From positions 2,848,001-2,912,000 of the forward strand of contig OY761158.1 of assembly GCA_963664405.1 (NCBI GenBank): a DNA stretch of 64,000 bases, in the 5' to 3' direction. Position 1 is the stretch's first letter. The number at the start of each line of letters is the position of its first letter. This stretch comes from Thermoanaerobaculia bacterium (GTDB lineage: Bacteria; Acidobacteriota; Thermoanaerobaculia; Multivoradales; Multivoraceae). The notes beneath the pieces were generated by a model. It was not told the DNA's origin, did not search any database, and was given only the letters and a program-made list of their open reading frames with translations. Shown here piece after piece: positions 42,555 through 49,565 of this stretch. A program made the translations under genes and the position numbers.

Positions 42555-43273
42555 CGTCTCCCGCTCTTAGGCGCCCTCGGTACTTGTAATGGGCTCTGAG
42601 GGTTGTGGCCAGAGCGAGGTACGTGCCACCGATCCGCGAGGCCAGAACCGTCGTTATCGATTGCTGCGCCGGCAATCTGGCAGGGGCAGGTCGACTGCAT
42701 GAGGATTCGTCTATACATGTGGTGATCGATCTTGTACGTCAGATGTACATGTTCGATCTCGGTACCCATGAGGGGCGTCGCGACGCCACCTTTTCAATAT
42801 TCGGCTGGCAGTGCGACACGAAGGAGGAATCTGATGACCTGATCGAAAGACAGAGATAGGAGACCTCTGGGTCTCGAAGGCCGGCGGGTGAGAGTCCCGC
42901 CCGGGGAGTTGTCGGTACACCCCGGTAGCCGCCGGAGCAGTCGATGCGGGTGACCGTCCGGCTGAAGCCTCCGGAAGATCTGGATTAAGTCCAGAGGGCA
43001 AAGGTGCAGGCCGCAACGTGAGTGAACCCTGAGAAGGCCCCGAAAGTTACTCGCTGGAGCCGACCCTCCTGCCATAAGGGGAAGGCCGCCGCTCGGCGGA
43101 GGAGCAACCGACCGTTGAATCCGTCGAATCCAGCCGGGGTAGTGGGGGTGGCATGTACCGAAGGTCTTTGAGGCAACGTGTGAGACCCAGATCGGTGGCG
43201 GGTTGCGACCGCCAACCGGGAAGGCGTAAAAGGTCGTTCTCGGGCCGGTGTGGGAGTCGGAGGGGCTCGAAGT

Positions 43274-44598
43274 GTGCGCCAGGCAGCGCGTTGATCGGGA
43301 GGGTTTGAGTCCCTCCGGCGCTCGGATGAGGGGCGTCGTATCCAAAAGCGGGGGTAATGCCTCGCTGGCCGAAGAGGGAGACAGGTATGGAGAGCTCTAA
43401 ACGGGCACGAAAGGGAAACCTGGAAACAGCCAAGGGCGACCTGAAGCCGTCTCTCGTGAGACTTCGGAGGGCAGGGTGCTCACCGCGAGGTGAGATCCGA
43501 AGGGCTTGCGGAGAAGTACCGGGCCGTAGTCGATGGGGGCCACCCCGAAGACGAACCGGTCGGCCAAAGGTGGGACAAGGTCGAGCCTGCAGTTTGGAGG
43601 CGAAGGCGTTTCTCATTCACCCACCGCACCAAGGTGTTTGCGGACGGCACGGTACGGAAGATCAGCGTGTGACCCTGGGAGAGCTCGGACGCGGACCTGA
43701 GGGATTTCTTCGGGAGCGTTGATCACGAGAAGCTCTTGACGCTCGTGGCCCAACGGGTTTCGGACGGTCGGGTGCTGAGGGTTTTGCGCTCAGTACTCAA
43801 AGCCGGGAGCTACGGGGAGGGTCGCCTGTTTCCGACCGAGCGTGGGACTCCGCAGGGCGGGGTCGTATCGCCCTTGCTGAGCAACATTCTTCTGACTCCT
43901 TTTGATCAGGAGATGCGACGCAGAGGGTTTCGACTCACGCGGTATGCCGACGACTGGGTCCTCACTTCTTCGACCGTGGCTGAGGCTCGTAGAGCCTTGG
44001 CTGTGGCGACGAGGATCTTGGAGCGGCTCGGTGTCACAATGAATCCGCAGAAGACACGGATCGTGCAAGTGAAGTTTGGTTTCGAGTTTCTCGGGTACAA
44101 GATCAAGCTCGGCAAGCAGCTTCGGCTGCCGCGGGCGAAGATCCGCAGCGGTGCCCTTTCGGGCGCCCTGTATGCCTACCCGACTCAGAAGTCGATCCAG
44201 CATTTCAAGCAGCAGATTCGTGGCCGAACGCGGCGGAAGGCACCGGTTACCACCGAGCAGCTGATCGAAGACCTGAATCCGGTCCTGCGTGGATGGGGGC
44301 ACTACTACAAACGTGCCCACGTCCGAAGGCTCTTCCACCAGCTCGACGCATGGGTGGTGCGGCGCCTCTGGTCGCACCGTCACAAGCGCTGGCGTTGCAA
44401 GGGGTGGGACAGCCTGCCCCGCACCCGGCTGTACGGCGAGATGGGCTTGGTGAACCTTGTCGGTCTGATTCCTTCCATCGACTCCTCCCCTAAGGGGGCG
44501 TCTTCGTGAAAGCCGGATGCGGGAAATCTGCACGTCCGGTTTGAGCGGCGGACGGAGGCTAGCCCGTGGGTGAGTGCGGGCGCCTCCTCCGACCCGAC
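43274..44598 (+). mobile_element. Inner group II intron (internally deleted) carrying an RT/maturase remnant
   Basis: 5' GTGCGCCAGG at 43274; DV aagccggatgcgggaaatctgcacgtccggttt 44510-44542; DVI ends …gacccgAC at 44598. Confidence 0.88.
43688..44509 (+). pseudogene. ltrA: Group II intron reverse transcriptase/maturase, N-terminally deleted (RT3-7 plus X domain, no endonuclease domain)
   Basis: DADLRDFFGSVDH, GTPQGGVVSPLLSNI, RYADD, FEFLG, LNPVLRGWGHYY; RT0-2 absent. Confidence 0.88.
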
Positions 44599-45215
44599 AC
44601 TGATGAAGCCGGGTAACTCCGGTGGAGGGAAGGAGCCCTAGTTCTGGTGCGCTTTGGAAGGAGAAGGAGACCGGGATTGACGCAAAGTCTAGGAACCGAA
44701 TGAGTCAAACGACTCCGGAAGAAGCTCTGTGACAAGACCAAGCGAGAGGACGGTACAAGCTCCGATCGCAAGGAGCCGCCCGGCTAGATCGGGACCGAGG
44801 GGATCGACTCGCGAATGCCTCGTCGTGAAGCCAGTCCGGGAGCCGTGTGCGGGAGAACCGCAAGTACGGTTCGATGAGAGGCGGCGGGAAACGGAGCCAA
44901 GGTCTGGACAGTGAGGCACTCGCAACCGAAAGGGCGAGAAACAGACGGGCCTGACCTACAGCCACCGCGCCCGCCGTCGACTCCACCTTCGGGCCGTCCA
45001 TCCATCGTCGAGCTCGGGGAACGTAAGGATCGGTGTTATGGCCGGGTCCCTTTTCGGGTTCCGCAGAGGAATCGAAGTCCTCCCGTATCACCTCGAAGTC
45101 CTTGACTTTTCTTTCCAAGTTGCTGAGCGTTGCGCTCTCGTAGTGGCATGGGCGTAGACTAGCCTCACTCTCAGCCGACTCGAAATCTCGAAGGTCCATC
45201 AATGAGGAGGTCCAG

Positions 45216-49489: not shown

Positions 49490-49565
49490 TGGTAGCGCAT
49501 ACGGGATTCGAACCCGTGTTACCGGCGTGAGAGGCCGGCGTCCTAGACCCCTAGACGAATGCGCC
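49490..49565 (-). tRNA. tRNA-Glu (anticodon CTC)
   Basis: Cloverleaf GGCGCAT…ATGCGCT-A-CCA; anticodon arm CCGGC-CTCTCAC-GCCGG; T-arm GGTTCGAATCC; 76 nt. Confidence 0.97.

Follow-up and report, generated by a model that had tools for sequence, protein, structure and literature searches.

The stretch of DNA analysed here, referred to as the window, comprises 64,000 nucleotides (nt) of the genome of a Thermoanaerobaculia bacterium (G000:2848001-2912000, G000 being the source genome) and is part of a single 6.78-Mb contig. Its positions 42811-44986 hold a twintron, in which an inner group II intron (I) interrupts an outer group II intron (O). The findings as a whole are best explained if this twintron is a fossil left by a lineage that homes into other introns, a reading to which a probability of roughly 0.8 can be given. 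Two further introns of the genome are referred to below as D, a second host of I, and C, a third intron.

Two group II introns, one within the other

Two GTGCG starts were found at 42811 and 43274, on the plus strand of the window like all features described below unless stated otherwise. The outer intron O has a length of 851 nt, contains no open reading frame (ORF) and is split into a 5' segment at 42811-43273, comprising domain I (DI), DII, the J2/3 junction and the 5' strand of DIII, and a 3' segment at 44599-44986, comprising the rest of DIII, DIV with an intron-encoded protein (IEP) remnant, DV and DVI. Between them, at 43274-44598 (insertion point 43273|43274), lies the 1325-nt inner intron I. 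O starts with GTGCGAC, in agreement with the 5' GUGYG consensus, and carries a conserved DI, with the Rfam signature RF02003 (D1D4-4 type) at 42882-43021 (100.7 bits), and a DV/DVI end at 44838-44986 (RF00029, 34.6 bits, E 0.00023). I runs from GTGCGCC at its 5' end to ...CCCGAC at its 3' end, both ends being common to its relatives and conforming to 5' GUGYG and 3' AY, and has its own DV/DVI at 44508-44598 (RF00029, 42.9 bits, above the gathering score of 40), as well as a weak RF02001 match in its DI at 43479-43668 (30.5 bits). The search with Rfam DI and DV/DVI models suggested in a preliminary description of this DNA, which had proposed the twintron from the sequence alone, therefore found both DV/DVI ends and the outer DI, with the outer DV/DVI staying under the gathering score; the same outer DV reaches 35.6-41.4 bits in sister copies of O.

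BLAST against the bacterium's own genome revealed an uninterrupted 851-nt copy of O at G000:2592101-2592951, 97-98% identical to the window copy (98% between the 5' segment and G000:2592101-2592563, 97% between the 3' segment and G000:2592564-2592951), in which GGGGCTCGAAGT|ACTGATGAAGCC is continuous over the junction. Because this empty-site copy reads through the junction, so that taking out I restores a contiguous host intron, the nesting is exact and real, and together with the Rfam matches it bears out the two starts and two DV/DVI ends of the proposed twintron. A second filled copy of O is present at G000:6396014-6401261. Six O copies or fragments of the genome share the 5' exon TCGG(C/G)TGGCA before GTGCGA, which in the window is the homing site ttcggctggca at 42800-42810, and four full copies share the ends GTGCGAC...CTCCAC. 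The window copy of O is located between two divergent genes. It can be regarded as an ORF-less derivative, as had been described, since a relative at G000:6214298-6216332 has 1135 nt more in its 3' segment, with a 464-codon frame encoding RVT_1 and GIIM; naturally ORF-less derivatives are a known form of group II intron (PMC2882425). A more distant D1D4-4 relative of O, at G000:884854-886694 on the minus strand (69-78% DNA identity), has an open 449-codon IEP frame and has not been invaded by I.

The insertion site and its recognition

Comparative folding places the insertion site 5 nt inside DIII, past its basal helix and just after J2/3, and not at the DI/DII junction to which the preliminary description had assigned it. 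For D1D4-6 hosts, alifold predicts a helix between positions -12..-6 relative to the site and a segment downstream of it, and across hosts the -12..-6 strand covaries with the 7 nt that follow GGAGGGAAGG. The longest host pairing was the 7-nt pairing of -12..-6 in 21 of 39 non-redundant intron-type hosts, most of which have as partner the 7 nt after GGAG(G/C)(G/C)AAGG, and at least 12 different helix sequence pairs occur among hosts, such as GGGGCTC/GAGCCCT, CTGGCTG/CGGCCAG and CCGCGCC/GGCGCGG. In O, the strands of this helix are ggggctc at 43262-43268 and gagccct at 44633-44639, and gaagt at 43269-43273, the core of intron-binding site 1 (IBS1), lies unpaired on the 5' side of the internal loop of DIII. 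The RF01998 consensus in Rfam has a corresponding layout, with a DII hairpin, a linker, gUCAGCAGAg and the helix GcC...GgC, after whose 5' strand AUAGU is the first unpaired stretch, and the insertion point falls directly after AUAGU. In addition, only about 80 nt of O separate the site from the Shine-Dalgarno/start region of the former ORF, an interval which by its shortness fits one small domain, DIII, and not two. The earlier claim that I interrupts the ribozyme of its host, not its ORF, is upheld by this position. A helix CUUUGAG/CUCGAAG beside the site, obtained by minimum-free-energy folding of O and of pieces of it, was rejected; covariation backs GGGGCUC/GAGCCCU.

The target appears to be read in part by base pairing. 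The hairpin loop at 43591-43596 (agtttg in the window) is a perfect 6-nt complement to exon positions -6..-1 in 46 of 70 aligned relatives and, as exon-binding site 1 (EBS1), tracks IBS1 from one target class to the next (EBS1/IBS1: ACTATG/CATAGT, ACCATG/CATGGT, AGTATA/TATAYT, CATAGG/CCTATG, ACTACG/CGTAGT). The window copy has AGTTTG where its sisters have AGTATG, a change that suits the variant CGAAGT of its own host, with 5/6 pairs versus 4/6. Similarly, the base at 43637 (the T in ggtgTttgc) covaries with the first base of the 3' exon, T going with A in 40/40 cases, A with T in 10/10 and C with G in 6/7, and in the window this T pairs with the +1 A; judged by this covariation, it behaves as the EBS3 of IIB introns. 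I therefore pairs with its host through both EBS1-IBS1 and EBS3-IBS3.

The complementarity of relatives that the preliminary description proposed to check for EBS1 and EBS2 was thus seen for EBS1 only. No column of the whole 5' alignment was consistently complementary to -14..-6, and in the variable loop region the observed mean was 4.56, compared with 4.52 in the control. The missing EBS2 pairing would be understandable if positions -12..-6 are a strand of a host-specific, variable helix. Conserved GUCGGA (about -21..-16) and GAUGAAG (+4..+10) on either side of the site are candidate contacts of the protein.

An inner lineage with many hosts

The genome contains four copies of I, all inserted at the homologous site of one of two unrelated hosts, O of the D1D4-4 type (the window copy and the one at 6396959, 6.397 Mb) and D of the D1D4-6 type (2681602 on the minus strand, 2.68 Mb, and 3046982, 3.05 Mb). 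A scan with the I protein as query, using one genome per species, gave 77 loci with IEP relatives of 48-78% amino-acid identity in at least six phyla, the groups represented being Acidobacteriota, Proteobacteria, Binatia, Planctomycetota, Myxococcota and Gemmatimonadota. Mapping of the ribozyme ends with nhmmer yielded 71 5' junctions and 63 3' junctions. When the flanks were read, as had been suggested earlier, 52 of the 71 5' junctions showed the DIII-type motif G(U/G/C)C(G/A)G(A/C)-N7-(C/G)RUAGU|A; 15 lay in IS110-family insertion sequences (IS), nine of them downstream of a transposase remnant and six inside the DEDD domain of the transposase (Pfam), and four were other or ambiguous. Independently of the flank motif, Rfam found a host DI signature upstream of the inner copy in 26 of 36 loci scanned (16 + 20 loci), at a distance from the site that is fixed for each host class: 139-145 nt for D1D4-6, 58-95 for D1D4-3, 277-279 for D1D4-2 and 241-270 for D1D4-4.

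In a FastTree phylogeny of the inner lineage, computed from the ribozyme 5' part with a midpoint root and without one truncated row, the host types are interspersed, and the copies that target IS110-family elements, whose distal target motif is similar, form one nested clade. The proposal that I belongs to a lineage specialised to home into other group II ribozymes is supported by these sequence comparisons, with most members at one conserved host-intron site (4/4 own copies, 52/71 junctions, 26/36 Rfam loci) and EBS/IBS pairing to it. The lineage's own DIII carries the same target motif, and no clear case of self-nesting of I relatives was seen among the loci examined.

It could be supposed instead that I is found in its hosts because composite twintrons move as units, with no independent homing. 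The outer/inner composite is indeed present twice in the genome, and mobility of composite introns was named as one possible route by Mohr et al. 2010 (PMC2882425). However, one copy is filled and one empty in each of the two O subfamilies (site variants CTCGAAGT and CTTGTATT), hosts of different classes harbour near-identical inner copies (L071/L072/L073/L076, for instance, with hosts of types D1D4-4 and D1D4-6), and the EBS1 of the window copy differs from that of its sisters by the change noted above, which fits the site variant of its own host. Movement as a composite is consequently unlikely as the explanation of the pattern.

Several observations on individual copies stand beside this. 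At L097:698-4753, two I-relative copies are arranged head to tail, the 3' end of the first directly abutting the 5' end of the second. Among IS110-family targets, one sublineage (L055-L061, L079, L091) lies about 200 nt downstream of a Transposase_20 remnant and another (L063, L092-L095) in the codon after AMESTGVY of the transposase. The sole I copy with an uninterrupted 435-codon IEP frame (L026, start at G000:2681598-2681602, minus strand) begins with GCGCG, not GTGCG, and the base C at intron position 2 was also seen in L038, L065 and L089.

Deeper nests involve intron C, an element of 1882 nt and Rfam D1D4-2 type with an open 488-codon reverse transcriptase (RT)/maturase frame, whose three copies are 99.8% alike over the intron and lie at G000:6398349-6400230 (in locus L028), G000:3048372-3050253 (in L027) and G000:2676831-2678712 on the minus strand (in L026), none being in the window. 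In the RT genes of both I and D, C is inserted immediately behind the YADD codons (GACGACT|), giving three-level nests. That this also happens in other genomes is suggested by D1D4-2 matches at the corresponding offset within the I relatives of L069, L090, L099 and L101. The locus L028, which is the second filled O copy, is a four-part nest in which O holds a 477-nt repeat (6396423-6396899) and I, and I in turn holds C. Since the 477-nt element occurs in many copies and has longer relatives of about 1.85 kb (for example 2643060-2644910), it resembles an insertion sequence shortened by deletion. L027 (G000:3046577-3050756) has the order D 5' part, I 5' part, C, D 3' part, the arrangement expected after recombination of a C copy in I with a C copy in D. 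The locus is then truncated by a 156-nt repeat, which is present more than 25 times in the genome. Outside the intron loci, a tRNA gene was found at 49493-49565 of the window on the minus strand (62.2 bits).

A broader proposal can be put forward tentatively, at somewhat less than even odds. The endonuclease-less lineage may be a cross-phylum hyperparasite of group II introns which targets the J2/3-DIII core that at least four ribozyme classes keep for catalysis, by means of EBS1, EBS3 and protein contacts and with no EBS2, so that hosts could not escape by mutation and invasion would shut the host off unless the guest splices first. Intron C would do likewise at the YADD codons, producing the three-level nests, and offshoots of the lineage would have been retargeted to IS110-family elements with a similar distal motif.

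Decay, history and relation to known systems

The full-length I (2033 nt, G000:2679570-2681602, minus strand) encodes a 435-amino-acid IEP in which Pfam recognises RVT_1 and GIIM, both complete, but no endonuclease domain. The window copy matches it at positions 1-414 and 1122-2033 (BLAST, own genome), with about 707 nt missing at the junction 43687-43688, where no clean microhomology was found when looked for. In the full-length intron, DI closes by pairing of nt 14-24 with 386-397, the stem-loop at about 405-508 that comes next is DII, and DIII, directly before the start-codon region, is closed by CGGCUG/CAGCCG, with compensatory changes in 21 of 23 pairs among 25 relatives. The deleted positions 415-1121 accordingly comprise DII, J2/3, DIII, DIVa, the start codon and RT motifs 0-2. 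The window copy is thus an incomplete ribozyme, whereas its full-length sister has kept these parts, and instead of an RT/maturase gene in DIV it holds a remnant of 278 codons (43673-44509) which starts at RT motif 3, without a start codon or N-terminus, and covers profile positions 71-205 of 205 of RVT_1 and the complete GIIM. With these parts missing it can neither make RT nor, most likely, splice, and the window twintron would be a decayed relic in which the outer intron stays split. The earlier suggestion that O folds only after I has spliced is therefore inapplicable to the window copy.

The possibility was considered that the twintron still works, I being removed in trans by the protein of the full-length copy so that O can fold and splice. 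In its favour, the window copy keeps DI with EBS1 and EBS3 as well as DV and DVI, the full-length copy at 2.68 Mb has an open 435-codon IEP frame, and a form that skips 43274-44598 (43273 to 44599) was present in assembled contigs of both RNA-labelled public runs (X15 and X16), as it was in those of two runs of unrecorded kind (X1 and X4). On the other hand, a protein cannot replace the missing J2/3, DII and DIII, and the genome itself contains the skipped form, at 2.592 Mb, for which reason these contigs provide no evidence of twintron splicing. A working twintron is decidedly unlikely. None of the listed contigs of the four runs spans the whole twintron stretch. One contig in each RNA-labelled run covers almost only the uninterrupted outer intron, from 42819/42824 to 44793/44955 with the flanks excluded, which is at most a weak hint that the empty O copy is transcribed or that excised intron RNA accumulates, as DNA may be present in these libraries.

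A chance event, in which an ordinary mobile intron with no target specialisation landed once in another intron, would be in line with the frequent presence of group II introns in or near mobile elements, other group II introns being their commonest neighbours (PMC7306698). Yet I occupies the same site in two unrelated hosts of this genome and in four host classes across phyla, and both EBS1 and EBS3 covary with the target. The class-fixed distances and the 26 of 36 loci with a host signature are also the opposite of the scatter over unrelated sites by which the preliminary description had thought its proposal might fail, and chance carries very little probability. An assembly chimera, which it had likewise considered, is very unlikely, to the point of being negligible: although the introns are multi-copy at 95-99% identity and short-read contigs of the public runs break inside them, the window belongs to one long contig, a second nested locus has different secondary insertions, the same nesting and junction type recur in dozens of other, independent assemblies, and public-run contigs extend without mismatches into both edges of the outer intron, by 16-20 nt on the 5' side (as far as 42826-42830) and by 29 nt on the 3' side (from 44958).

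Other points weigh against the preferred reading of a fossil twintron left by an intron-homing lineage. Both of its parts are read from sequence, neither splicing nor mobility having been observed, and the presumed inability of the window copy to splice is deduced from the absence of DII, J2/3, DIII and DIVa. The skipped-form RNA contigs match the DNA copy at 2.592 Mb down to its variants, such as 43234 T>C. With respect to the target, the window EBS1 forms 5/6 pairs with cgaagt, with a G-G clash at -2, the EBS1 of the full-length copy pairs at only 4/6 positions of the D-host site, and recognition of the flanks by the protein is no more than inferred. As for the relatives, the count of 52/71 is a reading of the flank motif and not the output of a blind classifier, many loci come from few metagenome-assembled genomes, so that the junctions are not independent events, and a host signature was missing in 10 of the 36 Rfam-scanned loci. 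Two of these ten are IS110 targets; the others carry the motif, and their hosts may be truncated or divergent.

Taken together, the following history would account for the locus. The ORF-less intron O would have retrohomed into the intergenic site TCGGCTGGCA|C and would then have been invaded by I, an IIB-like intron with no endonuclease domain, whose lineage would home to RAGUC-GGA-[7-nt helix strand]-(C/G)RUAGU|A, a J2/3-to-DIII sequence indispensable to many group II ribozymes. Insertion, 5 nt beyond the DIII basal helix, would have relied on EBS1 with exon -6..-1 and EBS3 with +1, as shown by covariation, and presumably on reading of the conserved flanks GUCGGA (about -21..-16) and GAUGAAG (+4..+10) by the IEP; the lack of an evident EBS2-IBS2 pairing is in keeping with a variable helix strand at -12..-6 of the target. 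Because the IEP is endonuclease-less, reverse transcription was probably primed from replication-fork DNA. The window copy would later have lost about 707 nt, including its own DII, J2/3, DIII and DIVa and RT motifs 0-2, leaving domain III of O split and O presumably inactivated.

A widespread lineage that targets a catalytic-core sequence of several ribozyme classes would provide a natural system for ribozyme folding under the control of a second ribozyme, with target choice by a short EBS1/EBS3 code plus protein contacts. It would also help in understanding the persistence of mobile introns, which would find safe harbours in other elements that are multi-copy, harmless and self-spreading. 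Nested introns are dropped by intron-finding pipelines (PMC4028801, PMC8919778), which makes such cases relevant for annotation, the window copy itself being only a decayed example. Homing into other introns is already known, from Thermosynechococcus elongatus and Methanosarcina acetivorans; a lineage targeting DIII, a catalytic-core site that several ribozyme classes have in common, did not come up in the parts of the literature searched, which included PMC4476101 and PMC3552965 besides the articles cited here, and the bacterial group II intron database or the supplementary tables of PMC7306698 may already list such cases.

In T. elongatus, F3 introns (TeI3a-e) lie inside F1 introns (TeI4a-e) (Mohr, Ghanem and Lambowitz 2010, PMC2882425). 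As with the I lineage, one intron family came to target a site that is conserved in another mobile group II intron, derivatives without an ORF exist, and independent insertions into already dispersed hosts were inferred. In contrast, insertion in T. elongatus is into DIV, between two start codons in the RT ORF of the host, and not into ribozyme DIII; guests are closely related to their hosts and share one genome with them, whereas the I lineage has hosts of four Rfam types in several phyla, and the T. elongatus IEPs (PMC2882425) carry the endonuclease domain that the IEP of the I lineage is without. The Tr.e.I7/Tr.e.I8 twintron of Trichodesmium erythraeum (Pfreundt and Hess 2015, PMC4649490) is alike in that a bacterial inner intron interrupts a ribozyme domain of its host and not an ORF. 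It differs in being a single locus in a conserved protein gene, with the site in domain I and sequential splicing in vivo, whereas the present copy is decayed and intergenic; the part of that article used here reports no lineage-wide preference for introns. In the Euglena chloroplast twintrons (Copertino and Hallick 1991, summarised in PMC4424553), the inner intron often must leave before the outer RNA can fold, but these are organellar, degenerate, gene-fixed introns and not a mobile RT-encoding lineage with a homing motif.

The nested introns of M. acetivorans, summarised in the same review (PMC4424553), home into other introns and form nests several levels deep, balanced by deletion and recombination, with flanks that lack host genes. 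From its title, the 2003 study of M. acetivorans by Dai and Zimmerly reportedly concerns homing into related intron ORFs, a habit that is closer to intron C here than to the DIII-homing inner intron. RmInt1 in ISRm2011-2 is said to be an endonuclease-less intron resident in an insertion sequence. RmInt1-like introns share with the I lineage the absence of an endonuclease domain, and sublineages of I are also found in IS110-family elements; the I lineage differs from them, on the other hand, in that its main target is another ribozyme and not an insertion sequence.

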